A stretch of DNA of 64,000 nucleotides. It comes from a virus (taxonomy: Duplodnaviria > Caudoviricetes). The translations under genes and the position numbers were made by a program. The stretch spans positions 5,338-69,337 of the IMG/VR virus record IMGVR_UViG_3300028832_000136; one strand, written 5' to 3'. Of the stretch, positions 5,655 through 59,583 are shown piece by piece; position 1 is the first letter of the stretch, and every line of letters starts with the position of its first letter. Under the pieces are notes generated by a model. That model was not told the DNA's origin. It ran no database searches and worked only from the letters and a program-made list of their open reading frames with translations.

Positions 5655-6184
5655 TGTCAATGTTCGGCGCTGACTTCGCGACAGGCGAGTTTTATCCTAG
5701 ACATCCAGAAAAGTGCCTGAACAAGAATGGCAAAATGCCGGGTGTCCACAAGAAGATTACATTCCGTTCCAGTTGGGAATCAATCTTTGCGAACTGGTGC
5801 GACATTGAAATGAATGTACTTGAATGGGGTTCTGAGTGCATTGAAGTGCCCTATTTCTCTCAGATTGACAATCGCCATCATAAGTATGTGACCGACTTCC
5901 TTATCGTAACCAAAAATAGAAATGGCGATGTTGAAAGGTGGCTTATTGAGATTAAGCCAGCATGTCAGGTACCGCAGCTTAACGAATGCGGGCAAATCAT
6001 CTTTCCAGAACTAAACAGAAAAAAGAAGCTGACGCAGAAAAGAATTGACGCTTGGCAAGAACGCTGTAATGTTTTACGCAGAAATCACGAAAAGTGGACA
6101 GAAGCCCGTAAATGGGCGAAACTGCACGGATATAAGTGGAAGGTCGTGACGCAGGAAGAACTCGGGTTACTTGCCGACAAGTAA
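5654..6184 (+). CDS. gp4: Head completion nuclease, T4 gp4-like
   Basis: FYPRHPEK, FRSSWE, EWGSE.IEVPY, YVTDF, IEIKP, NHEKW.EAR.W. Confidence 0.9.
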   Translation: MSMFGADFATGEFYPRHPEKCLNKNGKMPGVHKKITFRSSWESIFANWCDIEMNVLEWGSECIEVPYFSQIDNRHHKYVTDFLIVTKNRNGDVERWLIEIKPACQVPQLNECGQIIFPELNRKKKLTQKRIDAWQERCNVLRRNHEKWTEARKWAKLHGYKWKVVTQEELGLLADK

Positions 6185-6190
6185 TAAATA
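6182..6190 (+). promoter_or_regulatory. Late promoter TAATAAATA overlapping the gp4 stop codon
   Basis: Match to the T4 late consensus. Confidence 0.6.
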
Positions 6191-6214
6191 AAACAAAATA
6201 CTCACGAGGTTTGT

Positions 6215-7645
6215 ATGTTATCAGATTTTAGAAGATTTCTTATGGAAGGCACTATGCCTCAGACCGGAAACATTGTTGTTTTCTACGGTCGCTTTAATCC
6301 TCCCCATGTTGGTCATTTGGGCGTTGTAAGAAAGCTCGCAGCCCAGGCAAAGGAAGAAGAAGGCGAGGCTATCATATCGCTGTCAGGTTCTGTTGATGCT
6401 GAAAAGAACCCGCTTGACTTTGAAACAAAGAAGAAATACGTCAAGCTGATGTGTAAGCCTTATGGCGTCACTGTCGCTGAAGATCCTTGTATGAAGGTCT
6501 ATGATCTGATCCGTGACTGTGCATTCCTTTCTCAGCAGCGTGGTGGCGGTACTGTGACATTGCTCGCAGGCTCTGACCGCGTCCCAGCATATCAGGGATT
6601 CGCAAGATCATTGTTGAAGAAATACCAAGCCCGTGGTGAAATTTTGGATGTGAACGTTGTTGTTAAGGAAGCTATGGCTCGTGACTCTGACGAAGCCTTC
6701 TCAGCATCTCAGATGCGTGCTTTCATTAAGAACGGCGATGTAAACGGCTTTGTTGAACATGCTCCGTTTGATGACAAGCAAGCTGCCGAACAGATGTTCA
6801 AGGATGTAGCAAAGGGTATGGGCATTGAAGAATCCGTTGTCCGTAAGACCTTAAACGACCTTCTTGGTGAAGCTCATATCTCCCACGAGGCAAGCGATGT
6901 TAGAGCCGCCGCAATGGAAATGGGTAAACAGGTTTCTGAACATACAAACGAACTGACTGGGGAACCTGACCACCTATGGTTCATTGGCGGATGCGTCCGT
7001 GATGAAATTTTGGGCAAGACACCGAACGACTTTGACCTAATCACAACCATGTATTACAAGACTTATGCGTCCTTGTTCAATACAACAGATATCAGATTTA
7101 GAGGTAAGCAGATCATCGTTGTGCCTATCGTCGCCGGCGAAGAATTTGAAACTGCTTGCTTGCATAAAGGCGAAAAGATTGAAGACAACCTCCAATTCCG
7201 TGACCTAACAATGAATGCTATGGCACAGGACCTCGCTACTGGCGAAATTGTTGACCCATGTGGCGGACAGAAGGATATGAAGGCTCAGAAGCTCAATCTT
7301 ACCAATTTCATGAAGGAAGCAATGTCAACCGGCGGTCAACCTGTTGCAGTTCTTCGTGCTATCCGTTTCTACTCAACATACGGATGGGACTTCACCGCTG
7401 ACTCAATGGACACATTGAAGAAATTCAGCGCTGCAAACAAAGGCGTGCTTAAGGTCACACCTCGTCAGTTTGACAAGGACTGGCAGAAACTTATCAAGGG
7501 TCAAAACGTTCAAGGCGCTTTGGATTTGATTAAGGAGCTTGGCTTCCACGATTACCTAGTGAAATCTCAGCCGCAGTATGCCTCATACGTAAACGGCGAA
7601 ACAGAAGAAGAAACCACAGAACCTGCACCTGAGGAAGAAGCCTAA
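6215..7645 (+). CDS. Fusion of HxGH cytidylyltransferase-like domain and CCA/poly(A)-polymerase-family nucleotidyltransferase
   Basis: YGRFNPPHVGH, AGSDR, SASQMR; then IGGCVRD.ILG..PNDFD, RDLTMNAMA, DP.GG.KD, LRAIRF. Confidence 0.85.
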   Translation: MLSDFRRFLMEGTMPQTGNIVVFYGRFNPPHVGHLGVVRKLAAQAKEEEGEAIISLSGSVDAEKNPLDFETKKKYVKLMCKPYGVTVAEDPCMKVYDLIRDCAFLSQQRGGGTVTLLAGSDRVPAYQGFARSLLKKYQARGEILDVNVVVKEAMARDSDEAFSASQMRAFIKNGDVNGFVEHAPFDDKQAAEQMFKDVAKGMGIEESVVRKTLNDLLGEAHISHEASDVRAAAMEMGKQVSEHTNELTGEPDHLWFIGGCVRDEILGKTPNDFDLITTMYYKTYASLFNTTDIRFRGKQIIVVPIVAGEEFETACLHKGEKIEDNLQFRDLTMNAMAQDLATGEIVDPCGGQKDMKAQKLNLTNFMKEAMSTGGQPVAVLRAIRFYSTYGWDFTADSMDTLKKFSAANKGVLKVTPRQFDKDWQKLIKGQNVQGALDLIKELGFHDYLVKSQPQYASYVNGETEEETTEPAPEEEA

Positions 7646-8643
7646 TGAAGAGTGCATTTGACTTACTTGGTGACGGCAAGTGGGACCTGATGTGCCATCT
7701 CTTGGAGGTGGCAGCAAAGGGTAGAAACTTGTCAACCAAAATTGACGGCGCGCCTGCCGTTGTGATGTGGTCAGAATTCCCTGGGCTGAAAGGTCCAGGT
7801 GTTTCTTTCAAACTGATTATTCAGCAAACACAGAAGGGAACACCCGGTGCCTACTTCACAAGCAATGAAGAGATTGATAAGTTCTTCGCTGAGAAGGATA
7901 TGGAACCCGGGGCTAAGGAACATCGCATTGCATCATTTAAGAACGCTTTGAAGTTAGCCCGCACAGTTAAGCCCGGGATAATGGTTTGGGGCGATGTATT
8001 CTATGGTAAGGGCGATGAATTGACAGAGGTTGATGGCAATCCCGCATGTACCCCAAACACGCTTGAATATGTCTTTACGGACCCGCAATGGGTTGCCCAA
8101 ATTGAGAAGTCAAACTTCGGTATCTTCGTTCATACGAAGGTGTCATCCTCATTCTCTGTTTCGAGAATCAGCGATGCAAGCGGTTTGCTTGATAAATCAG
8201 AGGCTTTTGTCCTTGACCCGAACGACATTGAACCGAAGATGAAGAACTTCAATGCACCGGGCATTGGCCCAATCCGTGCTCACTGTATGTCAATAAAGGA
8301 ACTGAACGACCCGAAGTTCCAGAAGAACCTTCGTAAGGCATTCAAGACAAAGGACTTCTCAGTGCTTGGCGATAAGGCCGATGACATCGCAAACCTATGC
8401 GCTGAAATTTCCAAGGCATTGAATGACATCACCGAGCAGATTAAGCTCGGCGGTTTCTATACACGACATCAAGGCAAGCCATCAGGCGGTGAAGGTTTTG
8501 TTGTAAGTGATGGCTCGGAAGCAATGAAGCTTTTGACCGATGACTTTACTGACAAGAATTTGGCCCACATGCACAAAGTTCATGAACAGGCTAAGCAGTT
8601 GACTGAAGCAATTAACAATCTTTTGAAGGTGATGAAGAAATGA
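7645..8643 (+). CDS. RNA-ligase-like nucleotidyltransferase (DUF6267-like)
   Basis: TKIDGAPA (KxDG), PNTLEY, GEGFVV....MKL; typical neighbour of phage cytidylyltransferases. Confidence 0.6.
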   Translation: MKSAFDLLGDGKWDLMCHLLEVAAKGRNLSTKIDGAPAVVMWSEFPGLKGPGVSFKLIIQQTQKGTPGAYFTSNEEIDKFFAEKDMEPGAKEHRIASFKNALKLARTVKPGIMVWGDVFYGKGDELTEVDGNPACTPNTLEYVFTDPQWVAQIEKSNFGIFVHTKVSSSFSVSRISDASGLLDKSEAFVLDPNDIEPKMKNFNAPGIGPIRAHCMSIKELNDPKFQKNLRKAFKTKDFSVLGDKADDIANLCAEISKALNDITEQIKLGGFYTRHQGKPSGGEGFVVSDGSEAMKLLTDDFTDKNLAHMHKVHEQAKQLTEAINNLLKVMKK

Positions 8644-10013
8644 ATTTAGCTGAGTATTATGTTCAGCAGACTGGCAAAGGTCTGAATGAAAAGTTTGAAG
8701 GAAACAACATCCTTCTTTACACAACATCAAAATCTGAAGAATTTGAACAGTACTTCTTCAAGCAGGAACTGCGTTTTGCGAACAATGCCGGCAACATGTA
8801 TGGCCTTGGCATTTACACAACGCTTGAACCACCTGCAGAAGCAAATGTGGGTTATCACGACGATACCCGTCAAACATTGTATGGAAACAATGTATATGAA
8901 TTCAAGATTGCTTCTGATAAGCTGATGTATTTCATCTATTCTTACTTCGTCAAGTCAGCTCTGTTCAATGAACTCGGCAAGCCTGGAGAAGAAACATACA
9001 TTGAAGCTCAGATGAAACATTTCGGCATCAAGTATGATGAAAACGATGTTGCCCGCTTGACACCGAATGAAAAGCGTAATTCAGCTAAGTGTGCTTATGC
9101 CTTCTACAAGATGATGAACGCCGATTATTATCAGCGCGATGACGGTACTCTTGAAACTCCTATCTCCGGTTTCCTTTATGAAGGAAAGAACGATGGCCTT
9201 GTTGGCGTTATCTGGAACCCGTATGATTTGACATTGACTCGTAAGTCTATCGGCGGTGGAGATTGGCAGCCTATTTCTGGAAAGCTCGGAAAGGCAAAGA
9301 AAAATGATGTGAAGAACCGTATCTTCGCAGGCAATATGACAGATGAAAAGGTCGCTGTCTATAAGGCTCTTCAGGGTGCAAGAGACGACGAAGGCGTCGG
9401 TGGTCAGTTCACTGACATTGTAATCACCGATGATAAGATTGTCAATTTCACTTATAAGTCACTCCTTCCACAGGTTGACGGCTACAGACACTGCCTAATC
9501 ATGCAGAAGAATCCTTACTTTGAAAAGATCTTCGGTATGGGCTATCGCTTCGGTAAGGTCAACGGTTGGTTGAAGCTAGGTCACTCAACACAGGGTTCTG
9601 ACGAACAGTTCAGACCGACAACATGCCCGAAGGAATACTGGCCTGCTGAAATTTCAGAGGGTTTCTACCTAACTGGTATGGATGTGACTGACGCAGAAAT
9701 CAAGGCTCTTGCTCGTCATAAGTCAGCTGAAAACAAGCTCGCTATTCGCCGTTCAAACATTCTTACCGACAACCTTGGCAAGTTCAATGTTGAAAAGCTT
9801 GAAGAATGCACTGCACCTGACGAGATAGCAAATGCCTTGAATGCTAAGTATAAGACAGAGGTTCGCCTCCAGTCAGACTATGAAGCTGAAATTGCTCGTA
9901 AGGAAGCAGCTAAGCGTGAGAAGGAAGCAGCTAAGAAGGCCAAGGAAGAAGAGAAGGCTCGCAAGGCTGCTGAACGCGAAGCAAAGAAAGCGGCAAAGGC
10001 TACAAAGAAATAA
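8640..10013 (+). CDS. Putative ADP-ribosyltransferase-fold protein with K/E/A-rich tail
   Basis: NAGNMYGLGIYTT and YG..VYEFKI resemble the PARP-like ART core; canonical YHG is replaced by LYTT. Confidence 0.45.
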   Translation: MNLAEYYVQQTGKGLNEKFEGNNILLYTTSKSEEFEQYFFKQELRFANNAGNMYGLGIYTTLEPPAEANVGYHDDTRQTLYGNNVYEFKIASDKLMYFIYSYFVKSALFNELGKPGEETYIEAQMKHFGIKYDENDVARLTPNEKRNSAKCAYAFYKMMNADYYQRDDGTLETPISGFLYEGKNDGLVGVIWNPYDLTLTRKSIGGGDWQPISGKLGKAKKNDVKNRIFAGNMTDEKVAVYKALQGARDDEGVGGQFTDIVITDDKIVNFTYKSLLPQVDGYRHCLIMQKNPYFEKIFGMGYRFGKVNGWLKLGHSTQGSDEQFRPTTCPKEYWPAEISEGFYLTGMDVTDAEIKALARHKSAENKLAIRRSNILTDNLGKFNVEKLEECTAPDEIANALNAKYKTEVRLQSDYEAEIARKEAAKREKEAAKKAKEEEKARKAAEREAKKAAKATKK

Positions 10014-10032
10014 ATAAAGTAGAGGAATACAA

Positions 10033-11700
10033 ATGATATCAGCACACGATTTTTTGAATGAAGCAAGGGCAAAGATTGACCCGAAGCCAAAGAAGGGCGT
10101 TTCTTCTACTGACAAGCCGAAGACATCTGAAGAAGAACAGGCGGTTGCCCAGCAGAAGCCAACAACCGCTAAAATCCCAAACCGCAACATCTCAACATTT
10201 GATGTTCTTAAGCAGTATCCTGATGTTATTGCTGAACTCGAGGAACTTGCTGGCGGTCCGCTTGTAAGCGATGAAGAATTTGAAAACCCAAACTTTAACG
10301 GCTTGTTCTATAAGACATCAAACAGCGCAAGTGCCAAGCCTAAGCTTTGTATCGGTAAGGGCTCTGCGGCTGAAGCAGCAATGTTTGATGCTGGTGCTGA
10401 ACAAAGCGGACCTTCTGACATTACAATTACATTGCCGTCTGGTGCTAAGATTGCATTGCATCAGTCAGCCAAGGCAAAGTCATTTAAGTACTTGAAGAAC
10501 ACAACTGACTTCCAAGAAGCAGTAATTGCTGCTTTGATGCAGATGAAGGTTGACAAAGTTGAAATTCCTATTCCGTCTGATAAGAAGAAAGCTAAGTACC
10601 CCGTTCAGGCTTGGATGGAATCTTCTGACCCTGTAAAGAAGACAGGTATTTGCAGATATCTTGATTACACAGTACCGCCTGAAGATGTTGAACAGTTCCA
10701 AGCTGAAATCAACATGATCTTGACATCAAACAACAACGGTTGGCGAAACTGTTTTGAAGCAATTTACAGACAGGATTGGAAGCAGGTAATCAACAGCGTA
10801 TTCATCAAGCCACCTACTTGGTTCAAGCCGCTGTTCATTCATGACAACTTGAGACTGCCTGCTAACATTAAGGAATCGGCATCAAAGTTCCTTGGTAAGC
10901 AGCGCTGTGAAGTTCAGAAAGATACTGTTGATAAGACCGACGTTTTGTTGGTATTCAACAGCGCTGAAGCAGCTGATTTGATGGACCACTGTATGGAATT
11001 TAAGAAGGGCCAGATTGAAGAACATAATAACTTCGTCAACGAAATGATTAACCAAGGACGAATGCTCGGCCTATCATTGAAGCAGACAGGTGCAGATGTT
11101 ATGGTCGCCGCTGTTAACTTCAACCTTAGAACAACCGCCGTTGGTGACAACATCAATGATAAGTATAAGGTCGTTGTTCAGATTGACCCGACTAACCCTG
11201 ATAACTGCACATTCAACTGTAAAAAGGCAGCGCTGGACATTCCGAAATTCAAGGAAGGCGTTAAAACATATTGCATTGGTGTGCCGTTCAATAAGGGACA
11301 TGCCAATGACTTGCATGCAGCCGATGATGATATGTTAGGTATCTTCATTCGTGAAGCTGGCGGCACTAAGCAATGTAACTTCGGTCTTAAGGGAGCAAAG
11401 GCATTCTTCGGTAAGGGTAATCTTGCATTGAAGGACACCGTTCCTGATGAGCCTAGCTATAGACCGATTGACTTGACCGCCATCATCAATAATGCTATTG
11501 CTGATGGTAAGTCAGTTCCGGCCGCTGTATATGAAGGTGTGAAACGCATTGCATCACTAATCTTCACCCATCCGTGGACCTTTACCAAGATCTTTGCTAA
11601 GTCAGCAGGCTACCCACTTGCTATCCTTGGTAAAGATAAGAGGGGCAAGAAGAAATACAATTACGAAATCGTTGCAGCTCCTTACTTAAAGATTTTCTAA
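10033..11700 (+). CDS. Large late protein, possible PD-(D/E)xK nuclease-like domain
   Basis: DFLNEA leader; TTDFQEA, DKTDVLL, LGLSLKQ. Confidence 0.4.
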   Translation: MISAHDFLNEARAKIDPKPKKGVSSTDKPKTSEEEQAVAQQKPTTAKIPNRNISTFDVLKQYPDVIAELEELAGGPLVSDEEFENPNFNGLFYKTSNSASAKPKLCIGKGSAAEAAMFDAGAEQSGPSDITITLPSGAKIALHQSAKAKSFKYLKNTTDFQEAVIAALMQMKVDKVEIPIPSDKKKAKYPVQAWMESSDPVKKTGICRYLDYTVPPEDVEQFQAEINMILTSNNNGWRNCFEAIYRQDWKQVINSVFIKPPTWFKPLFIHDNLRLPANIKESASKFLGKQRCEVQKDTVDKTDVLLVFNSAEAADLMDHCMEFKKGQIEEHNNFVNEMINQGRMLGLSLKQTGADVMVAAVNFNLRTTAVGDNINDKYKVVVQIDPTNPDNCTFNCKKAALDIPKFKEGVKTYCIGVPFNKGHANDLHAADDDMLGIFIREAGGTKQCNFGLKGAKAFFGKGNLALKDTVPDEPSYRPIDLTAIINNAIADGKSVPAAVYEGVKRIASLIFTHPWTFTKIFAKSAGYPLAILGKDKRGKKKYNYEIVAAPYLKIF

Positions 11701-11724: not shown

Positions 11725-11761
11725 AAGATGGCGTTCAAAAGGCGCCATCTTTTGTTATATT
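11725..11761 (+). terminator. Terminator hairpin plus -10 (TATATT 11756-11761)
   Basis: AAGATGGCG/CGCCATCTT stem. Confidence 0.8.
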
Positions 11762-11767
11762 TTGTAT

Positions 11768-12613
11768 ATGAATAATTTACACGAACAATTATGGACCTCA
11801 TTTAATGACATCTCCTTTGAAGAGACTCGTCATAAATACACAGACTCACTCGGCACAAATTATCAGTCCGCAACGGGTTGGTATAAGCAGTTTGTGCCTG
11901 AGGTCAATTGGGACGAAAAAGCAAAGAACAGTGCACGAAAGAGAGCAGCAAAGAAAGTCAAAGAAGAACATCCTGAACTAACTGGAGAAGAAAAAGACAA
12001 GCTCATTGAACTTGAAACTGAAAGCCTTATCCCGAAGGTTCAGGCTGAATGGAAATATGCCGGTGACTATTCATGCGCCCTTGGAACACAAATTCACTCC
12101 GTGATGGAAAACCTTTGGTATAAGAAGGATTATCGTTTTGATAATCGTCTTGAGAAAGATTTCCCAGGAATGAAGGAAGACTTTGAATGGCGCAAGAAGT
12201 TCCGCTGCCTCCCACTTTTCAAGAAGATGAAAGGCATTTATGCACCTGTCGCAAATGAATTCGTCGTATATGACCAGCCGAATGGAATCTGTGGAACCAT
12301 TGATATGATTGCTTATAATATGAAGACCAATTCATACGCAATCATTGACTGGAAGACATCAAAATCCTTTGACACACATAGCTTTACAGGCGATGAATAT
12401 CTCAAGGCTCCGTTTGATGATCTTGAAGTATGCAACACAACTGAATACTCATTGCAGTTAAGTTTATACAAGTACATGCTTGAGAAACACACTGACATGA
12501 AGATTTCGGAATTGTTGCTTTTCCAGCTGCCAGGCGCTGATAAGAAGATTCCACTTGTCCATCGCTGTATGGACCTGTCTGGCCGTATCAAGGATTTCTT
12601 AGAGAAAAAATAA
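11768..12613 (+). CDS. PD-(D/E)xK (RecB-like) exonuclease
   Basis: ANEFVVY, ICGTIDM, IIDWKTS, YSLQLSLY. Confidence 0.85.
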   Translation: MNNLHEQLWTSFNDISFEETRHKYTDSLGTNYQSATGWYKQFVPEVNWDEKAKNSARKRAAKKVKEEHPELTGEEKDKLIELETESLIPKVQAEWKYAGDYSCALGTQIHSVMENLWYKKDYRFDNRLEKDFPGMKEDFEWRKKFRCLPLFKKMKGIYAPVANEFVVYDQPNGICGTIDMIAYNMKTNSYAIIDWKTSKSFDTHSFTGDEYLKAPFDDLEVCNTTEYSLQLSLYKYMLEKHTDMKISELLLFQLPGADKKIPLVHRCMDLSGRIKDFLEKK

Positions 12614-12677: not shown

Positions 12678-12902
12678 ATGAAAGCAGTTGTAGGCGACAA
12701 AATCCGAATCCGCGCTCTTGCGACGGATTCCGATGGCAATGAAGACCCAAGAGCCGAAGAATACAAAGGTCGAGAGGGAACCGTGGAAATGGTTGACTCG
12801 ATGGGTATTCTTCACGGAACATGGGGCTCTTTGGGAATCCTTCCTGAAGATTTTTACGACATCATAGACCACCGACCCGACTCGGAATGGAGACCACAAT
12901 GA
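12678..12902 (+). CDS. DUF4314-like small protein
   Basis: GDKIRI...GTVEMVDSMGILHGTWGSLGILPED. Confidence 0.65.
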   Translation: MKAVVGDKIRIRALATDSDGNEDPRAEEYKGREGTVEMVDSMGILHGTWGSLGILPEDFYDIIDHRPDSEWRPQ

Positions 12903-18269: not shown

Positions 18270-18666
18270 TAGTTGCAGTGGCATTATCATTCCTTGGAAA
18301 GCAGTAAAGCATATTGAACTTGGCAAGCAGACACTTGTTGAAGGTGAAACTGATGTGTATGATTTGGACTACTTTATGGTCGCCATTGACCTGAACATGG
18401 AAGACGAATTTGAAACATATCAGTATGAAGAAACAGTTGAAGCAAGAAACGAAACATTAAGAGAATTTCACGATTGTTCAGACATCACACATCTTTACAT
18501 TGACGGCAAAGAATATCGCCCGATTTGGAAACCCGGTGCGATGTTTACCAATCCGTGGCAAGAAAACCACAGACTAACAACATCTATGGGCGATAATGAA
18601 CTTTTCATTTCTATCGCCGAAAGATCCGATGAGGTATACATTTATGCGGGAGCAGAACTTAAATAA
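18226..18666 (+). CDS. Hypothetical protein
   Basis: GGAGG RBS. Confidence 0.65.
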   Translation: MQEKATDKMLEIRFDSCSGIIIPWKAVKHIELGKQTLVEGETDVYDLDYFMVAIDLNMEDEFETYQYEETVEARNETLREFHDCSDITHLYIDGKEYRPIWKPGAMFTNPWQENHRLTTSMGDNELFISIAERSDEVYIYAGAELK

Positions 18667-19456
18667 CATCAAGATCTTTGAGGACACTCAAAAGCAGTTT
18701 GAAACGAACTTGACCCTCAAGGAAGCAACTGAAGAAGCAAAGCGTTTTACTGCATTCTACTCAAATTGGAAAGGTGGTCCGATTGACCGTTTTGACGAAC
18801 CATGTAAGGTTGTCATCTCCAAGAAGAGTTCTTTTGACGCTGCAAGAGCATACGGTGGAAAGGTTGCGGTGCTTAACTTTGCATCTGCGACAAACCCAGG
18901 CGGTGGCGTGACGAAGGGCTCTAACGCTCAGGAAGAATGCCTTTGCCGTTGCTCTAACTTGTATCAGTGTTTGAACCAGAAGGAAATGTGGGACAAGTTC
19001 TACACACCGCATCGTCAGACTGGAACACCGTTGCACAATGACGATATGATCTTGTCAAGAGTGACGATCATCAAGTCGGACTCATACAATAATCTATACA
19101 GACCGTTCACGGCTGATGTGATTACTTGCGCTGCTCCGAACTTGCGTGAAACGCCGGCTAACGCCTACAACCACGAAAGAGGTGAAGGCGTCAAGATCTC
19201 GGCTGAGGATTTGATTAAGCTGCATGAACAGCGTGCTGAAGGTATCTTGAGCCTTGCAGCCTTCAACGGCGATGATCATATCATTGTCGGTGCATTCGGT
19301 TGCGGAGCATTTAAGAACCCGCCTGAACTTGTTGCTCGGGCTTGGAAAAATGTAATAGAGAAATACAGAAAATCATTTAAGACGATTGAATTTGCTATCT
19401 TCAGCAAGTTTGACACCGTCAATTATGACGCCTTTAAGGCAGTCTTAGAAGGATAA
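18644..19456 (+). CDS. Bacterial-type PARG macrodomain (TIGR02452/DUF2263 family)
   Basis: LNFASATNPGGG....SNAQEECLCRCS.LY, LVGAFGCGAF-type motif (IIVGAFGCGAFKNPP). Confidence 0.9.
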   Translation: MREQNLNNIKIFEDTQKQFETNLTLKEATEEAKRFTAFYSNWKGGPIDRFDEPCKVVISKKSSFDAARAYGGKVAVLNFASATNPGGGVTKGSNAQEECLCRCSNLYQCLNQKEMWDKFYTPHRQTGTPLHNDDMILSRVTIIKSDSYNNLYRPFTADVITCAAPNLRETPANAYNHERGEGVKISAEDLIKLHEQRAEGILSLAAFNGDDHIIVGAFGCGAFKNPPELVARAWKNVIEKYRKSFKTIEFAIFSKFDTVNYDAFKAVLEG

Positions 19457-23478: not shown

Positions 23479-23948
23479 TGGCAGATAAAGAATTAGAAGA
23501 AATGCTTAATGCCGGTCATCAGGAAGTTCACATCGGTGAACCTAAAGTTGACTGGAACATGTGGCATAAGCCAATACAGGAAAGTCTTCGTGCCTTTGAC
23601 ATAAGCACGACTGTATCATTGTGTAAGCGTCTTGGCATCACATTTTCTTACGAAGATGATGGAATGAATTTGTCTGATTTGCGAAATTGGGTTGAGGATG
23701 TTTGCGAAGGCCTTGTGTTGTGGTTCACAACCGGCAACCGTTATGAGGCAACAGGCGTCAATACCTATCGTGAAGAAGATACCGGCATTCTTGTCGGTGA
23801 AATTCAACTCCATGCGCCATGTGATGACGATGACGAAATCATTAACCCGGTAATTCAAATCAAGCTGCGAAAGACATCGCCAACTGATGATGACCCAAAT
23901 CCTTGGTGGTTTGACATTTCATTCATTTTGGCATCGCAGATGTTTTAG
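23478..23948 (+). CDS. Hypothetical protein
   Basis: TAATG coupling, 156 aa. Confidence 0.7.
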   Translation: MADKELEEMLNAGHQEVHIGEPKVDWNMWHKPIQESLRAFDISTTVSLCKRLGITFSYEDDGMNLSDLRNWVEDVCEGLVLWFTTGNRYEATGVNTYREEDTGILVGEIQLHAPCDDDDEIINPVIQIKLRKTSPTDDDPNPWWFDISFILASQMF

Positions 23949-23988
23949 AAAATTTTCACCCACTACATAAAATCAGCAAAATCTTTTT

Positions 23989-23994
23989 TATATT
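23989..23994 (+). promoter_or_regulatory. -10 element TATATT after a T-tract
   Basis: Recurrent intergenic motif; no clear -35. Confidence 0.5.
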
Positions 23995-24021
23995 TTTGTT
24001 TGAATTTTTCAAGGAGAAATC

Positions 24022-24657
24022 ATGCAAGAATATAATAAAGACAATGCGATGAAGACAATGTTTGACATGCAAGAATCTTTGCAGAACGCTATCGGCGCAA
24101 AGAGAGGCACCCTCTGTCCTAACACTTGGAACCAGGACATCCCGGACAAGTATAGAACAATGGCTATTGAGTCAGGGTACTACATGATGTCAACTGTCAC
24201 CGAACTTTTTGAGTTCTTTGAACAGTATAAGAAGGACAACTATCAGTTCACCGATCTTGTCAAGTTTGAACTTATTGACGCTTGGCATTTCGTTATGAAC
24301 CAGCTTCTTTACATGAACATCAAGCCTACTCAGACCGTTGAATGGTTCTACAACAAGGCAAAGGAAAACATTGCTCAGGTAGACTTCGTAAATCATGACC
24401 TCTATCATATTGTTGGCGGCGTGGTTGAAACGATGGGTGAAATTTATCAAAACTCTTCTTACAAGAAGTGGAAGACATACGACCAGCCGAAGGAAGATGC
24501 TTTGAAGTTGCAGGTTCTCGCCGAAAACTTCTTGCTGAAGTTCTTTGAGTTGTTCGTTGTGGTTGGAATGAAGCCAGAAGACATCTGGAAGTTCTATTAC
24601 GAAAAGAACGCTGAAAATTTCAAGCGTCAAGAAAAAGGCGGAAGATATGAAAAGTGA
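24022..24657 (+). CDS. All-alpha dUTPase/dCTPase, T4 gp56-like
   Basis: ELFE, ELIDAWHFVMN, KNAENFKRQ. Confidence 0.85.
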   Translation: MQEYNKDNAMKTMFDMQESLQNAIGAKRGTLCPNTWNQDIPDKYRTMAIESGYYMMSTVTELFEFFEQYKKDNYQFTDLVKFELIDAWHFVMNQLLYMNIKPTQTVEWFYNKAKENIAQVDFVNHDLYHIVGGVVETMGEIYQNSSYKKWKTYDQPKEDALKLQVLAENFLLKFFELFVVVGMKPEDIWKFYYEKNAENFKRQEKGGRYEK

Positions 24658-24802
24658 TTTTCTAGGTTGGTTTGGTATTCTGCTCGGCATGGGAATTGCT
24701 TTGACCCTGCTGGCGGGTATCTCTAAATCCTCTTACGAGGATCTGCATCGCAATGATGCACCAGTCACCGTTGAGACGGAAATTCAATCATCAAGCAATT
24801 AA
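24647..24802 (+). CDS. Small membrane protein (51 aa; not in track)
   Basis: Hydrophobic N-terminal helix. Confidence 0.55.
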   Translation: MKSDFLGWFGILLGMGIALTLLAGISKSSYEDLHRNDAPVTVETEIQSSSN

Positions 24803-24880
24803 AGAAAAGTTTTCGCTTGTTCCAATCACAGGCGAAATCTTTTTTATATTTTAATCAGTTTTCAAATAGGAGAAATCAAA

Positions 24881-25642
24881 ATGATTAAAGAAATGAACTA
24901 TGATCCCAAGTTTATCAGCCTCATGACTGAACTTGCAGCCATCAACCCTCAACTGATTTTCAAGCAGGCAGATGACAAGGTATCTGTCAAGGCTATTGAA
25001 GCAAAGAACAAGTCAGTTTGCTTCTTCCTTGATGCACCGGCAACTGCATTCGGATTTGAATCTGAAAGCTTGGCAGTCATTGACTTCAACCGTCTTGTAA
25101 GCTATTACAACACATTCAATGTTGCAGGCAAGACAGCTGAAACAACTTCTACTCCAGTGCTGTCTGTTGAATACAGCGATGACGAAGCAACAGAAGCAAT
25201 CGTCATGCACATCAAGAGCTCGAAGCAGAAGGCTGCATTCCGTCACCGTCTCGCAAACGAAGATGTGATTGTGAAGCCGAACTTCAGCCGTATCAAGTTC
25301 CCTTCTACCGATGCTTCCTTCGCATTGACAAAGGACCAGCTCGATGATTTGAACAAGATGCAGAAGTTGACATCTGCAGACCGTATCAAGTGGGCATTCC
25401 ATGACTCCGTCTGCACCGTGACTTTGTTCAACACCAGAACAAACGATACATATGAAAATGACTTCATCATTGATGCAAGCGTTGAAACACCGTTTGACTT
25501 CACCACTGTCGCAGAAGGTATCGGTCTTCTCCCAGATGGCGGATACAAGATCGTTGTTTCAAAGGCCGGTATCATGTCCTGGACCCAGGACCGCACCGAC
25601 GACATCAATCTTGAACTCTACATCGCCAAGACTGGTAAGTAA
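24881..25642 (+). CDS. gp45: DNA polymerase sliding clamp
   Basis: LMTELAAINPQLIF, LAVIDFNRL, alternating clamp-like pattern, 253 aa; TATATT at 24845. Confidence 0.8.
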   Translation: MIKEMNYDPKFISLMTELAAINPQLIFKQADDKVSVKAIEAKNKSVCFFLDAPATAFGFESESLAVIDFNRLVSYYNTFNVAGKTAETTSTPVLSVEYSDDEATEAIVMHIKSSKQKAAFRHRLANEDVIVKPNFSRIKFPSTDASFALTKDQLDDLNKMQKLTSADRIKWAFHDSVCTVTLFNTRTNDTYENDFIIDASVETPFDFTTVAEGIGLLPDGGYKIVVSKAGIMSWTQDRTDDINLELYIAKTGK

Positions 25643-26631
25643 TGAGTGAAGAAAATCCGCAAGGATTGAAAGGGCAGGCGGAAAAGCCTGCCTTTTTTGA
25701 TCTTGAAGTTAGCGACGAATTTATCGGCAAGATCATTGATGGCATAGCACCCTCATACATTCGTGAGGATCCTATTGCTCGTAAGATGATAACCGAAATG
25801 TATAGAGCGGCGTTAAATGTGCATAGAGATGAGTTCTTTGTGCTACAGTCAAACTATCGCGCCTATTCGCTAACCAAGCTTGATGAGCATCTACGAGCAA
25901 CAAAACATCCTACCTTTGAATACGATACAAATGACACTACACAGTATATCTTAACTGAAGCGTGGAAGGCAAAAAAGATCGTTGCTGATGCGACATACAA
26001 GGCGTGGGAAGCGGATAAGAACAAGTGGATAAAGGCTACTGGTTGGAACACAAAGAAAGGTAAACGGCACGGCGGGCGTCTTGAAAAGAAAATGCCAAAG
26101 TGTCCACCTTTGTTTACCGACGCATACCCGACACCTCGCATTTTCATTGAAGAACTTAAACCTGAATTTGAAAAGAGGTTTAAGCCATATAAGCATGATG
26201 CATTTTGCTGGGTTCTGCAAGGCTTCATGTGTTTTATGCTTGACCTACATACTGACTTCCTTTTGAAACATCCCAACTTCTTTTCAGTTAAGATGAATGA
26301 GCTTGAGGTGCTTTATTTCGGAAATATGTCTTTGAAGTTCTGGAGAACCTTCTGCGAACATCAAAGGGATCATGCCCATAATCAAGCCAGAAATAAACTT
26401 ACAGAAACGAACGAAACTTACTTGCAGGCATTGAAGGACTACTGTATAGTCCATGGTAAAAGAAACTATGACTTAGTGCATACACCAAACTGGCTAGGAT
26501 GGTGGACACCTTCGGAACAGTTCGAGCAGTACTTATATGCAACTTTGAGTGACGGCGTTCAACAGTACCATAAGATTCGTAATAAGTCAGAGAAAATCTA
26601 TAACATAAGATCAGAAGCTTCATATTCCTAA
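25642..26631 (+). CDS. Hypothetical protein
   Basis: 329 aa coupled to the clamp gene. Confidence 0.75.
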   Translation: MSEENPQGLKGQAEKPAFFDLEVSDEFIGKIIDGIAPSYIREDPIARKMITEMYRAALNVHRDEFFVLQSNYRAYSLTKLDEHLRATKHPTFEYDTNDTTQYILTEAWKAKKIVADATYKAWEADKNKWIKATGWNTKKGKRHGGRLEKKMPKCPPLFTDAYPTPRIFIEELKPEFEKRFKPYKHDAFCWVLQGFMCFMLDLHTDFLLKHPNFFSVKMNELEVLYFGNMSLKFWRTFCEHQRDHAHNQARNKLTETNETYLQALKDYCIVHGKRNYDLVHTPNWLGWWTPSEQFEQYLYATLSDGVQQYHKIRNKSEKIYNIRSEASYS

Positions 26632-35582: not shown

Positions 35583-36051
35583 AAAGAAGACTGTTGAAAC
35601 GGTTGAGGAACCGGCTGAAGAAAAGGAAAAGACCATTGGCTTATTTGATGTCTTGAATATGATTGAAGGACAGAAATTGCCGTGGGACAAGCTTGATGAC
35701 GGTTATAAGAAGGCGTATAGCCAGTTTATGATAAACCGTTTCGTCAGTTCACAACCTCTTTACTGCCCAATCGTTGCAGAGCTGTCTTGTCAGCAGTTGA
35801 CTGACGAGCAGCATTACTTGATTTTGTGCAATGTTGTCGCAGGAAATCGTAAACATTGGTTCAACTACAAGGCTTATAAGAAGGAAAAGGTTGAAAAAGA
35901 CCTTGATGAGCTTATTTTTGCTTGTTGTAAAGAATATGAGATAGGACGCCGTGAAGCAAAGATGTATATAAATAATTTAGAGGAAACGGTAAAAGACCAG
36001 CTTAGAGCAAAATGGGCTGAGTCCTATAATTACGAAAGAGGAAACAAATAA
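35563..36051 (+). CDS. gp62: Clamp loader small subunit
   Basis: LFDVLN.I, YSQFMINRFVS, EQHY.IL, EYEIGRREAKMY. Confidence 0.8.
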   Translation: MAKGTTRKKTVETVEEPAEEKEKTIGLFDVLNMIEGQKLPWDKLDDGYKKAYSQFMINRFVSSQPLYCPIVAELSCQQLTDEQHYLILCNVVAGNRKHWFNYKAYKKEKVEKDLDELIFACCKEYEIGRREAKMYINNLEETVKDQLRAKWAESYNYERGNK

Positions 36052-37550
36052 TGCATAAGTCATTTAAGGATTTGATTAGCGAAGCATCTGTCGGCAAGGC
36101 AGATATTAGACGCGCCTCAGTGAATATCGTAAAATATCTGCAGAAGCATCTGGATAAGGAATTTAAGCCTTGTGATGGAAACATTTATGCAAATGGTTCC
36201 GGTACTTACACAGGTTATTTGTTCATCTGTCCGGCTGACAATGCAGCTATTCGCGTAAACTGGGCTGGCACCAAGTTCCACTCAATTAACGTTTGGAACA
36301 ATTATGTTGAAGAAGCATCTCCGGCAATGGAAATCTTCACCGGCAAGATTGCCCCAGGCGAAGCATCATTCGCCCGTTTGCTGCCTGAAATTGCAGCAGC
36401 AATTAAGGACGGCGGTTTTGCAAGCGAAGACGACGAACCGATGGACGAACTTGCCGAATCAACCAATGTAAATGAAGCCTATGAATATAACGGCAAGACC
36501 TATGGCACAAAGGTTGACATTGTTCATGCCATGTATGACGAAGGTAAGTCAGTTGAAGATATTAAGAATGCCGTTGGTTATCCTCCTGGACACATTCGTA
36601 ATTTGATTGCTCGCTATAAGGGCGAACTTGGCAGCGTTCAGAAGTCTAAGTCCGGAAAGGTCAAGGTTGTGAAGGGCGTGCCTGAAACAATTTTGCCGAA
36701 TAAGGGAACAAAGAAGGCTGATGAAGTTCTGGACGATACAGAATACGCTGACCCAGAAATCGTATTTAGTGACTTGCAGCAATATGTAACCCTAGTTGGT
36801 CGCCGTCTAATTCCAGCCCTTTTGATTACAGGTCAGGGCGGTATTGGTAAGTCATTCACCGTGACTGAAATTTTGAATAAGTATGGCAGCAAGGGTAAGG
36901 AATACGTTATCATGAAGGGTCGCTGCACTCCTTCTGCAATGTATAAGTTCCTCTATAACCATTACAACCAGATTTGCGTATTCGATGACTGTGACTCTGT
37001 TTTCGGTTCTGAAGACGGTATGAACATTCTTAAGGGCGCTTTGGACTCTGGTAACCCTCGTGAAATTTCATGGATGACAAAGGGTCCGGATATTGTGGAC
37101 ACCTTCGGTATTGAATCTCACGAAGAATGCGAACAAGCACTGGCTGCTTGGTCTGCAGAAAACAAGGGCCGTGATGGTACCCCGTCATACTTCCAGTTCA
37201 AGGGCGGTGTGATCTTCATCTCAAACTTGACAAAGCGCGATATCTACAAGAAGGACCGTGCTATTCTTTCACGCTGCACTGTTATTGACATTGTGCTTCG
37301 TGCAAAGGATGTTATCAACCGTATTGAAACCGTGCTTCCGCACATCAAGGTTTACGATATTGACGGTCATAACATCGCCAATGACAAGGGTAAGAAGATC
37401 GTATTTGACTTCATTAAGTCAGATGAATTCCAGAATCACCCGAAGATGAGAGGCAAGGAAGTTAACTTCCGTATGTTCAACCAGATTTATACCTACTGGT
37501 ATGCTGGATTTGAAAACTGGAAAGACCTAAGTTTCCGCGCAGGCGGCTAA
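36051..37550 (+). CDS. AAA+ ATPase with N-terminal domain and HTH
   Basis: LITGQGGIGKS, VFDDCDSV, LKGALDS, FKGGVIFISN, FRMF. Confidence 0.85.
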   Translation: MHKSFKDLISEASVGKADIRRASVNIVKYLQKHLDKEFKPCDGNIYANGSGTYTGYLFICPADNAAIRVNWAGTKFHSINVWNNYVEEASPAMEIFTGKIAPGEASFARLLPEIAAAIKDGGFASEDDEPMDELAESTNVNEAYEYNGKTYGTKVDIVHAMYDEGKSVEDIKNAVGYPPGHIRNLIARYKGELGSVQKSKSGKVKVVKGVPETILPNKGTKKADEVLDDTEYADPEIVFSDLQQYVTLVGRRLIPALLITGQGGIGKSFTVTEILNKYGSKGKEYVIMKGRCTPSAMYKFLYNHYNQICVFDDCDSVFGSEDGMNILKGALDSGNPREISWMTKGPDIVDTFGIESHEECEQALAAWSAENKGRDGTPSYFQFKGGVIFISNLTKRDIYKKDRAILSRCTVIDIVLRAKDVINRIETVLPHIKVYDIDGHNIANDKGKKIVFDFIKSDEFQNHPKMRGKEVNFRMFNQIYTYWYAGFENWKDLSFRAGG

Positions 37551-47024: not shown

Positions 47025-47507
47025 ATGGAAGTTGAACAAGCAAAGAAAGAACTTGAACAGGCAGGACTTGTCTGCGAAACCTTCATCAAGCCTAAGGCTG
47101 ATATCAGCGAGGCTGATTTGGCAGCAAAGATTTACGAACGCTGCGCATTCTCAGAAGACCACTTGAGAATTAGAAAGCACGCTGCTAATTACATTGCTGC
47201 TTTCTACGCAAAACAGGATTTGCCTTTGAACGGCATGGTGATGTGGGGTTCTCGTGACCTCAATAAGTTTGCTGCTTTGCTTGCTGCAGGTAAGTCACTT
47301 GATACTGCTTGTGCATCACTTCGTTCTATCATGGCTGTCACCCCGCAGGAAACAGCTGGTGAAATTGAACAGGCAAAGACTCGTATCAAGGATGAACGCC
47401 GCGCTGCTGAAGAAGAACGCCGTAAGGCATATCTTGCATCTGACGAATACAAGCACATGCAGGATCCGGGTTGGCGTGGTCCGAACGGCACTTGGTCTAA
47501 CGATTAA
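47025..47507 (+). CDS. Hypothetical protein with EAxxELxxAGL-type leader
   Basis: AAGGAG RBS. Confidence 0.75.
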   Translation: MEVEQAKKELEQAGLVCETFIKPKADISEADLAAKIYERCAFSEDHLRIRKHAANYIAAFYAKQDLPLNGMVMWGSRDLNKFAALLAAGKSLDTACASLRSIMAVTPQETAGEIEQAKTRIKDERRAAEEERRKAYLASDEYKHMQDPGWRGPNGTWSND

Positions 47508-47516
47508 GAGGTGTCT

Positions 47517-48041
47517 ATGAAGATAACGATTGAAGAAGCAAAGCGTGAGCTTAATAAGAGCGGCTTGACCATTGACGAAGGCTACTCAAAAGATAAGTTC
47601 ATCATATCTGGAATTTTTGACTGCGAAGGCACAATGAAGAAGCTTTATTACTACCGTTCGTCCGAAAACTGGACCGACGACATATATGAAGCAACTGAAT
47701 TCGTTGCATATCCTGTTCAGAATTTGATGAAAGCAAAAACAGTCTGCACGGAAGGCACAAAGAATACGCTTGGCTGTCCGACCGCAAAACTTGACCACAT
47801 TGAAGTTCTTCAGGTGAAGACAATGGGCACAGGCTACAGAAAGACAATTAAACTCATCGGTAAAACACCGGTGAAAATTAACGAAGACTTTGGCATTGGC
47901 GTCGGTGCACCGCTTGGCGCCGACCAGGGTATTCCGTGCGGCGGTGACTGCAAAGCAGTTGTCGCTAAAAGAATGGACGGTGGTCGCCCGCACTGCCGTT
48001 TTGACCTGAGAAGAAAGAAGAAGAAAAAGGCTAAGAAATAA
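47517..48041 (+). CDS. Hypothetical protein with the same leader type
   Basis: GAGG RBS. Confidence 0.7.
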   Translation: MKITIEEAKRELNKSGLTIDEGYSKDKFIISGIFDCEGTMKKLYYYRSSENWTDDIYEATEFVAYPVQNLMKAKTVCTEGTKNTLGCPTAKLDHIEVLQVKTMGTGYRKTIKLIGKTPVKINEDFGIGVGAPLGADQGIPCGGDCKAVVAKRMDGGRPHCRFDLRRKKKKKAKK

Positions 48042-58734: not shown

Positions 58735-59142
58735 ATGAGTTTTAAGTCATGGCTACATAATGATTATCTGAAGGAAGAAGCTGAAATGGGTCATGTTGAC
58801 CAGGAAGGCTTGGATCCCGAAGCACAGGTTCCTCAGCAAGAAATGCCTGCTGACAAGGTTGCTCCTCAGGGCAACGGCAATGGTTCATTTGGACGCTATT
58901 TCCAGAATGGCAACATGAAGACCGGTTTGCAGCAGTTGGGCAAGGACATTGGCGATGCTTTGTATAACTTCGCTATCAAGACTTATGTTTCAAACGATAT
59001 GTTTGACTCAGAAGATACCAAGCTGAAGTATGAAACTGAAGTTCGCAACAAGATTGCTGAAGACTACAACCTCAAGCTGATTGAAGTTCTTCGTAATGCC
59101 GGTATTTTCTTGGCTAACGCTAAGGAAAAGTACACTAAGTAA
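58735..59142 (+). CDS. Late hypothetical protein
   Basis: TAATAAATA at 58706, AAGGAG RBS, MSFKSWL..YLKEEA leader. Confidence 0.75.
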   Translation: MSFKSWLHNDYLKEEAEMGHVDQEGLDPEAQVPQQEMPADKVAPQGNGNGSFGRYFQNGNMKTGLQQLGKDIGDALYNFAIKTYVSNDMFDSEDTKLKYETEVRNKIAEDYNLKLIEVLRNAGIFLANAKEKYTK

Positions 59143-59151
59143 TTGGGGTAC

Positions 59152-59583
59152 CGCATGCCGATGGAAATAAATGAAGCATTGGACGCATTGAATAAGGCAG
59201 GCTGCCTCGTTGAAGGCATGGGCTGCAACGAGTTCAACGCCGATGGTTCCCGTAAGGAAACCCGCTATGGCAACCGTGCTGGTGCTGCTGGCTATACTTA
59301 TAAGAAGCCTACTAAGGACCGTAAGTATATTCAGATTTTGCAGTGCCTACTTGATGGCGGCAAGACAAAGGCTGAAGTTCATGCTGAACTCGGCTTGCCT
59401 GACCCTACCGCTAAGGACGAGCGCGGACAGACTAGCAACTACTATTCATCTGTCTGGCAGGAACTACGCCGTGCAGGTCTAGTTGACTATGACCGCGAAG
59501 ACGGCAAGACCGTGTGGTTCATTACTCCACGAGGCATGGATCTTGTGGACGAAGCAAACGGCCTAACAACTGACGGAGTGTAA
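59152..59583 (+). CDS. Winged-helix protein with leader
   Basis: ILQCLLDGGKTKAEVHAEL...VWQELRRAGLV......WFITPRG. Confidence 0.65.
   Translation, partial: RMPMEINEALDALNKAGCLVEGMGCNEFNADGSRKETRYGNRAGAAGYTYKKPTKDRKYIQILQCLLDGGKTKAEVHAELGLPDPTAKDERGQTSNYYSSVWQELRRAGLVDYDREDGKTVWFITPRGMDLVDEANGLTTDGV

Follow-up and report, generated by a model that had tools for sequence, protein, structure and literature searches.

Leaders resembling the T4 capsid targeting sequence on proteins of a putative late operon in a giant T4-like phage

The capsid targeting sequence (CTS) of bacteriophage T4 is textbook knowledge, mainly for the small internal proteins of the T-even phages. Here we examine a region of four genes (ORF1 to ORF4, together spanning 6215-11700) in a 64,000-nucleotide stretch of DNA, referred to below as the window, that is part of a 69-kb IMG/VR contig (IMGVR_UViG_3300028832_000136; completeness estimate 21%) of a giant T4-like phage, and we lean toward the view that two of its products, the ORF1 and ORF4 proteins, are packaged in the phage head by means of a T4-type CTS. 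In T4 this sequence reads MKTYQEFIAE (PMC8442874); residues 4 and 7 serve in targeting and residues 8 and 10 in processing, and the gp21 protease cuts after L/I-x-E (PMC9026906).

IPI, IPII and IPIII, which are internal proteins in T4, resemble the ORF1 and ORF4 proteins in having an N-terminal leader of about 10 residues, with a hydrophobic or aromatic residue at positions 4 and 7, Leu or Ile at 8 and Glu at 10, and in the placement of that leader on otherwise unrelated proteins, the link to late genes and the presence of a gp21-type protease in the lineage. They are small and basic, whereas the cargo here consists of multidomain enzymes of 50-60 kDa, whose targeting and cleavage are predicted; moreover, the consensus found here is rich in Phe and Trp (M-x-K-F-x-x-W-L-x-E), unlike the T4 sequence. 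T4 Alt, which is packed into the head, trimmed after L/I-x-E and injected, provides a precedent for a large ADP-ribosyltransferase (ART) handled in this way, and ORF3 has a weakly ART-like fold; but the two proteins have no sequence similarity, and ORF3 has neither a clear free leader nor an assignable catalytic triad. The ejection proteins of phages of the phiKZ and SPN3US type and the polyvalent proteins are likewise enzymes packed into heads in large numbers, where a gp21-related protease cuts after Glu, but their sites are of the S/A-x-E type and lie behind long propeptides or in MuF or portal fusions, not in a T4-type decapeptide. The mechanism is an established one; the novelty lies in what is carried and in how far it extends to giant phages that are uncultured.

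Layout of the operon

All genes of the window lie on the + strand. ORF1 to ORF4 are co-directional, the ORF1/ORF2 and ORF2/ORF3 junctions being overlaps of start and stop codons, and 19 nt separate ORF3 from ORF4. The initial annotation had described four large genes behind a late motif; all are present, and the N-terminal strings that it quoted are exact.

6183..6190, + strand: late-promoter-like motif AATAAATA, 24 nt 5′ of the ORF1 start codon, with equivalent spacing in relatives
6215..6247, + strand: ORF1 leader MLSDFRRFLME, expected to be cut after Glu11 and lying ahead of the NMNAT-like fold
6215..7645, + strand: ORF1, 476 aa; CTS-like 11-residue leader, HIGH-motif NMNAT-like domain, and head and neck of a class II Pol-beta domain of the CCA-adding enzyme/poly(A) polymerase (CCA/PAP) family
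7645..8643, + strand: ORF2, 332 aa; DUF6267, by its motifs a ligase-like covalent nucleotidyltransferase; KIDG at 32-35, GEGFVVS at 282-288; no detachable leader
8640..10013, + strand: ORF3, 457 aa; weak ART-like fold at about 20-208, a middle domain rich in beta structure, and a long C-terminal helix at 413-457 rich in Lys and Glu
10009..10016, + strand: another copy of the late-promoter-like motif AATAAATA, which overlaps the stop codon of ORF3 and lies 17 nt 5′ of ORF4
10033..10062, + strand: ORF4 leader MISAHDFLNE, expected to be cut after Glu10; in the family the consensus M-x-K-F-x-x-W-L-x-E keeps a fixed position
10033..11700, + strand: ORF4, 555 aa; CTS-like leader of 10 residues, basic and disordered linker at 16-45, conserved fold with no solved relative
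11725..11751, + strand: strong intrinsic terminator hairpin with an 11-bp stem, 3′ of ORF4, closing the operon

The motif AATAAATA differs by one base from its T4 counterpart, TATAAATA. The heptamer ATAAATA occurs 25 times in the window, where 9.3 copies are expected, and 24 of the 25 are on the coding strand; within the window it is found 5′ of tail, neck, lysis and RuvC-like genes and not 5′ of the SSB, topoisomerase or RNase H genes. Relatives carry the module to which these genes belong, the nucleotidyltransferase (NTase) of ORF1 and DUF6267 with associated domains. In five of them (L004, L005, L006, L008 and L012) the heptamer stands 23-31 nt 5′ of the ATG of both the first gene of the module and the ORF4-family gene, and in a further one (G2) 5′ of the first gene of the module only; the form conserved across relatives is (A/T)ATAAATA. 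Because a late-type motif is enriched, lies 5′ of the module and is kept in relatives, it is reasonable to read the four genes as a late operon, as the initial annotation did, on the strength of the sequence. Cultured phages gave no match to the region by megablast, nor to ORF2 or ORF4 by tblastn.

Leaders of ORF1 and ORF4

In both proteins the leader consists of a hydrophobic or aromatic residue, two further residues, an aromatic residue, Leu or Ile, one more residue and Glu, and ends at residue 10 or 11. As judged from sequence, it matches the CTS of the T4 internal proteins at the functional positions 4, 7, 8 and 10: ORF1 has F5, F8, L9 and E11, one residue beyond the T4 register, and ORF4 has F7, L8 and E10. 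We suggest that the leader would dock the ORF1 or ORF4 protein on the prohead scaffolding core, that a gp21-type prohead protease would then cut after the Glu of L-x-E, and that the mature enzyme would remain in the head and enter the host with the DNA. Gene structure, domains, leader conservation, the conserved promoter motif and the protease of relatives are observed here, and the detection of homologues in virions is taken from the literature; targeting, cleavage, injection and function are inferred.

The ORF1 leader falls outside the alignment with NMNATs. It is kept in P0030-P0035 and L004 (orthologues at 75-98% identity, with two at 55-76%) and absent from eleven orthologues at 44-55% identity (P0036-P0046), and it is an add-on, since in these eleven the protein opens with the Rossmann fold's first beta strand. 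For ORF4, a family of 21 matches among 1.8 billion representatives was recovered, of which 19 members were aligned. The string M-x-K-F4-x-x-W7-L8-x-E10 stands at the exact T4 register in 11 of the 19, the other members having a related variant with L-x-E a few residues later; beyond the leader the family is variable, diverging until about residue 50-190. In one relative (L002) ORF4's slot is occupied by a 560-aa protein with the same leader and, by BLASTP, no homology to ORF4, and the leader recurs on further proteins of no detectable homology: that encoded at window position 36051, its homologue in the relative G3, and small proteins of G2 and G3. The signal in the leader comes from the comparative data and not from the window alone.

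Virions of cultured cyanophages bear on the same question. Cultured Kyanoviridae carry the same module, and purified virions from four cyanophages contain cytidylyltransferases homologous to ORF1 (PMC10665884, PMC9146016). Three such virion-associated enzymes (S-CREM2 ORF154, S-SZBM1_140 and S-CRM01 g127) resemble ORF1 in the HIGH domain, the leader, a DUF6267 neighbor and late-type motifs nearby; they differ in standing alone, whereas in ORF1 a CCA/PAP-family domain is attached. Identity between S-SZBM1_140 and ORF1 is 27% over 219 residues (E 5e-19) with the leaders aligned; S-SZBM1_140 adjoins a DUF6267 gene and is the sole enzyme reported in the virion proteome of S-SZBM1. ORF154 of S-CREM2 starts MKNFSSFLTE and is in the virion proteome of that phage. 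Five S-CREM2 proteins bear the decapeptide (the cytidylyltransferase, a SAM hydrolase, a kinase and two proteins of unknown function), and every one of them is among the 52 listed for the virion. The strict form of the leader pattern is found in four of the 230 S-CREM2 ORFs, and all four were detected in the virion, compared with 50 of 230 overall (Fisher p=0.002); a fifth ORF with both leader and virion detection is that of the kinase, whose start codon is GTG. S-CRM01 and Melnitz have the same leaders on the same cluster. The cyanophage papers do not tie presence in the virion to a CTS-like leader, and our literature search for such a link in cyanophages turned up nothing beyond a passing mention in a review of T4.

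In S-RIM44, the annotated start of the cytidyltransferase gp100 (L050 7266-7751) lies too far downstream, the HIGH motif being found just 5′ of the annotated GTG.

A gp21-type (S77) prohead protease (PF03420) is encoded by the two largest related contigs, of 184 kb and 142 kb (G002 and G003), which carry ORF4-family genes, and their Gp23 capsid proteins have LxE sites at the N-terminus.

Several observations weigh against head packaging of ORF1 and ORF4. The phage is known from sequence alone, and the virion evidence is that of homologues, for which N-terminal cleavage is likewise predicted. The phage's own 69-kb contig, a 21% complete fragment, has no protease, scaffold or capsid gene. The virion peptide counts for homologues are low (2-3), the DUF6267 protein is missing from the S-CREM2 and S-SZBM1 virion lists, and the S-CREM2 authors, who noted the recurrent detection of these enzymes in virions, cautioned that abundant enzymes may co-purify. 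An LxE string is nothing special by itself: [LI]xE occurs within the first 30 residues of 30 of the 104 window ORFs, and a stricter T4-like pattern, with one match among window N-termini where 0.37 is expected, is not enriched. Position 4 of ORF4 is Ala and not aromatic. Finally, packaging is not intrinsic to the enzyme, because the leader is missing from many orthologues of ORF1 and, in other lineages, from the NTase-ligase proteins.

The initial annotation had proposed that the operon's enzymes are packaged in the capsid and that three of them have leaders ending in gp21-type sites. The proposal is plausible for ORF1 and ORF4, given the fuller CTS pattern of their leaders and the homologues in cyanophage virions. 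It is unsupported for ORF2, whose LLE string falls within the ligase fold and which has no leader, and ambiguous for ORF3, whose candidate leader is internal in fusion proteins.

If ORF1 and ORF4 are packaged as we suggest, the consequences extend to other phages. Purified virions have yielded a cytidylyltransferase, kinases and a SAM hydrolase in several cyanophage studies, which do not decide whether these are contaminants; a CTS-like leader offers a mechanistic explanation for these enzymes as well as for ORF1 and ORF4, and a simple rule by which the injected enzymes of uncultured T4-like phages could be predicted from sequence. The combination of a HIGH-motif NTase and DUF6267 is a widespread viral module and would be a candidate takeover or counter-defense factor for the first minute of infection. 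A bolder proposal, which we consider doubtful, is that the T4-type decapeptide is a portable tag, used from marine cyanophages to giant rumen phages, that loads an unrecognized multi-enzyme machine (NMNAT-like NTase, DUF6267 ligase-like enzyme, ART-like protein, protein with the ORF4 fold, and Pol-beta NTase) into the head, where it would serve to modify nucleic acid or protein, of the host or of the phage, in a new nucleotide-linked way as the DNA enters. Were this true, the proteins that any such phage injects could be predicted from sequence by the tag alone.

Activities of the four proteins and competing explanations

ORF1 matches both PF01467 (HIGH-motif NTase) and PF01743 (class II Pol-beta), which bears out the fusion of an NTase with a CCA-type domain seen by the initial annotation. 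The first domain has the motifs PPHVGH at 29-34 and FSASQMR at 162-168. Its nearest characterized relatives are NMNATs, all of them below the family cut-offs (14-21 bits for the NMNAT models, with cut-offs of 112-449; PDB 2qjt, E 0.066). The PF01743 part matches PDB 1miv at 1e-12 and resembles class II CCA-adding enzymes and poly(A) polymerase I in its head and neck, its motif A (GG-x-VRD; GGCVRD at 258-263) and its D-x-D carboxylates (DFD at 272-274). It is unlike the CCA-adding enzymes in other respects: in the alignment to 1miv the template motif D, EDxxR, is absent (GQPVA stands opposite EDALR), RRD reads FRD, and the match stops at residue 224 of the 404 in the 1miv chain, ORF1 ending 28 residues later without the tRNA-binding body and tail. 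By these sequence features ORF1 is not a canonical CCA-adding enzyme, and since neither EDxxR, the template motif, nor a tRNA-binding body is present in its CCA-type domain, a role for ORF1 in RNA repair is speculative.

ORF2 belongs to DUF6267, a family found only in viruses, on which our literature search found no paper. In eight DUF6267 sequences K32, D34 and G35 are invariant, and E-G-(F/R/V)-V and a downstream Lys are conserved. These motifs (KxDG as motif I, EG-x-V as motif IV and K as motif V) confirm ORF2, at the level of motif assignment, as a ligase-like covalent nucleotidyltransferase. The initial annotation had called it RNA-ligase-like; the ligase-like half of that description holds, but no RNA-ligase family is matched by ORF2, and neither the DUF6267 profile nor the ORF2 sequence matches any PDB sequence.

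ORF3 matches no family. Fold searches with an AF2 model (pLDDT 81, with the conserved loop 46-77 poorly modeled) returned for residues of about 20-208 only members of the ART superfamily, all low-scoring: the AcrIF11-type protein 6kyf (Foldseek E 4e-3; Z 4.2, root mean square deviation [rmsd] 4.7, 116 aligned), ParT 6d0h (Z 5.2, rmsd 4.2, 120 aligned), diphtheria toxin, exotoxin A, PARPs and, weakly, Tpt1. Y27, Y54, Y59, E17 and E63 are invariant, and neither an H-Y-E nor an R-S-E catalytic triad can be assigned from these weak superpositions. The ART-like label given by the initial annotation holds weakly, at the level of the modeled fold. The N-terminal helix of ORF3 lies inside the chain in fused relatives, and its counterpart in lineages without ORF3 is the C-terminal tail of the NTase-ligase proteins; for these two reasons it cannot be called a free leader. 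A homologue 98% identical to ORF3 (P0001) is encoded on a 235-kb contig.

The description of ORF4 as nuclease-like is unsupported: there is no Pfam or NCBIfam match, Foldseek against the PDB gave nothing at E<=1e-3, and a VIA search gave a best Z of 4.1, with HinP1I at an unconvincing Z of 3.0 (rmsd 7.7). Restriction-enzyme rows in the Atlas at 0.87 are leads only. In the AF2 model (pLDDT 83) residues 2-15 form a helix and 16-45 are disordered, after which comes a confident fold whose structural kin are found only in BFVD, among uncharacterized proteins of 465-612 aa, mostly of T4-like cyanophages. A search with the A1 profile and phrog_1462 in S-CREM2, S-CRM01, Melnitz and S-RIM44 found nothing, and kinship of the ORF4 family with Melnitz genes 15 and 20 or S-SZBM1 genes 139 and 142 was considered and rejected, hhalign showing no relation.

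Relatives join these domains in several ways. The NTase is fused to DUF6267 in L006, L008 and G2, to DUF6267 and the ORF3 domain in L002 (1051 aa), and to DUF6267 and the ORF4 domain in L005 (1212 aa) and P0029 (1135 aa); P0007 has a DUF6267 and ORF3-domain fusion, and the ORF4-family gene in relatives always lies 3′ of the NTase gene. Because relatives encode both fused to the NTase, ORF2 and ORF3 are part of one enzyme system.

As to the chemistry carried out on entry, we rank NAD- or ADP-ribose-linked modification, or modification of nucleic acid ends, above classical tRNA repair; NAD/ADP-ribose chemistry is at least as likely as the RNA-repair kit and accords somewhat better with the NMNAT-like, ART-like and PARG parts. 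It is possible, and we put it forward tentatively, that the proteins form an injected NAD/ADP-ribose takeover set in which the HIGH domain would make NAD or an NAD-like dinucleotide, the ART-like ORF3 would consume it in acting on a target of the host or the phage, that nucleotide-linked substrate would be worked on by the ligase-like and Pol-beta domains as well, and a phage PARG would reverse or trim the mark. The NMNAT affinities of the HIGH domain and the exclusively ART-like matches of ORF3 fit such a set, packaged ARTs are a known theme in myoviruses (PMC9503650), and a microbial-type PARG (PF10021, 1.8e-35) is encoded at window 18596-19456 and, in L002, directly 5′ of the NTase module. 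The NMNAT scores far under the family thresholds, the unassignable ART triad and the finding of no Nampt in five related fragments count against it.

We think it unlikely that all of these are ordinary late cytoplasmic enzymes, acting in DNA maturation before packaging or in nucleotide or NAD supply, with leaders that are amphipathic helices and virion detections that are carry-over. The operon does lie beside genes for a RuvC-like resolvase, a gp4-like protein, a PD-(D/E)XK exonuclease and an RNase H, and the frequency of LxE, the low peptide counts with the authors' own caveat, and the many orthologues without a leader all agree with this explanation. It leaves unexplained why one decapeptide, with the T4 CTS positions and at a fixed distance from Met1, should head unrelated proteins, why the leader is gained and lost among orthologues, and why every leader-bearing S-CREM2 ORF is in the virion set.

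Quite unlikely, in our estimate, is the packaging of all four proteins as an injected tRNA- and RNA-repair kit against anticodon nucleases or tRNA-end toxins. The initial annotation had suggested such a kit as a counter to tRNA-targeting defenses, which is a guess. A CCA/PAP-family domain and a ligase-like KxDG enzyme are what such a kit might contain, an ART fold could act like Tpt1 (weak Tpt1 rows are among the ART matches), and fusions link the domains. The departures of ORF1 from CCA-adding enzymes, the leader missing in ORF2 and internal in ORF3 fusions, and an ORF4 that is not recognizably a nuclease all speak against it, as does the lack of any RNA-ligase family match; in the window there are no tRNA genes, and no Pnkp or other RNA-repair marker was seen. 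That the leader docks some other partner (replisome, clamp or membrane) and not the prohead core is highly improbable, for while the module sits amid DNA-metabolism genes and the RNase H at 12887 starts with a similar F-L-E-E string, that N-terminus does not keep LxE in relatives, and docking elsewhere would not predict the virion detections.

Other leader-bearing proteins and neighboring genes

The gene at window 36051-37550 encodes a 499-aa protein (phrog_1250, weak STAND/AAA-like matches) that starts MHKSFKDLISE and is a candidate packaged protein; TATAAATA lies 84 nt 5′ of it, and its G3 homologue (86059-87552) starts MRFIDFINE. In the late neck and tail cluster, a 135-aa ORF at window 58735-59142 has a late motif and a leader resembling the variant form of the ORF4 family (M-S-F-x-x-W..., with L-K-E at 12-14).

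In L002, the PD-(D/E)XK exonuclease (12026-12331) is open for its first 101 codons only and is followed by unrelated ORFs, possibly the result of an insertion.

A second shared leader, M-x-L-x-E-A-K-x-x-L-x-x-x-G-Y-x-(L/I)-x-E, heads many small, otherwise unrelated proteins, which are likely core or internal head proteins because several flank the prohead protease gene in relatives. Its loci are as follows.

Window: 47025-47507, 47511-48041 and 59143-59583
G3 (L019-L020): 16786 and 23902-26244
G2 (L032): 102563 and 103749

A stretch that follows the leader, G-L-x-x-D-G-H-G-x-W/Y-x-D-x-x-G-K, is found in P0047-P0053, in S-CREM2 ORF14, which was detected in the virion, and in S-CRM01 g128 (L038 3444-3995); it may be a second head-association element. 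Directly 5′ of the portal gene, G2 encodes a very basic protein of 257 aa (130920-131693, L033) whose leader ends A-L-N-E-A and which is internal-protein-like.

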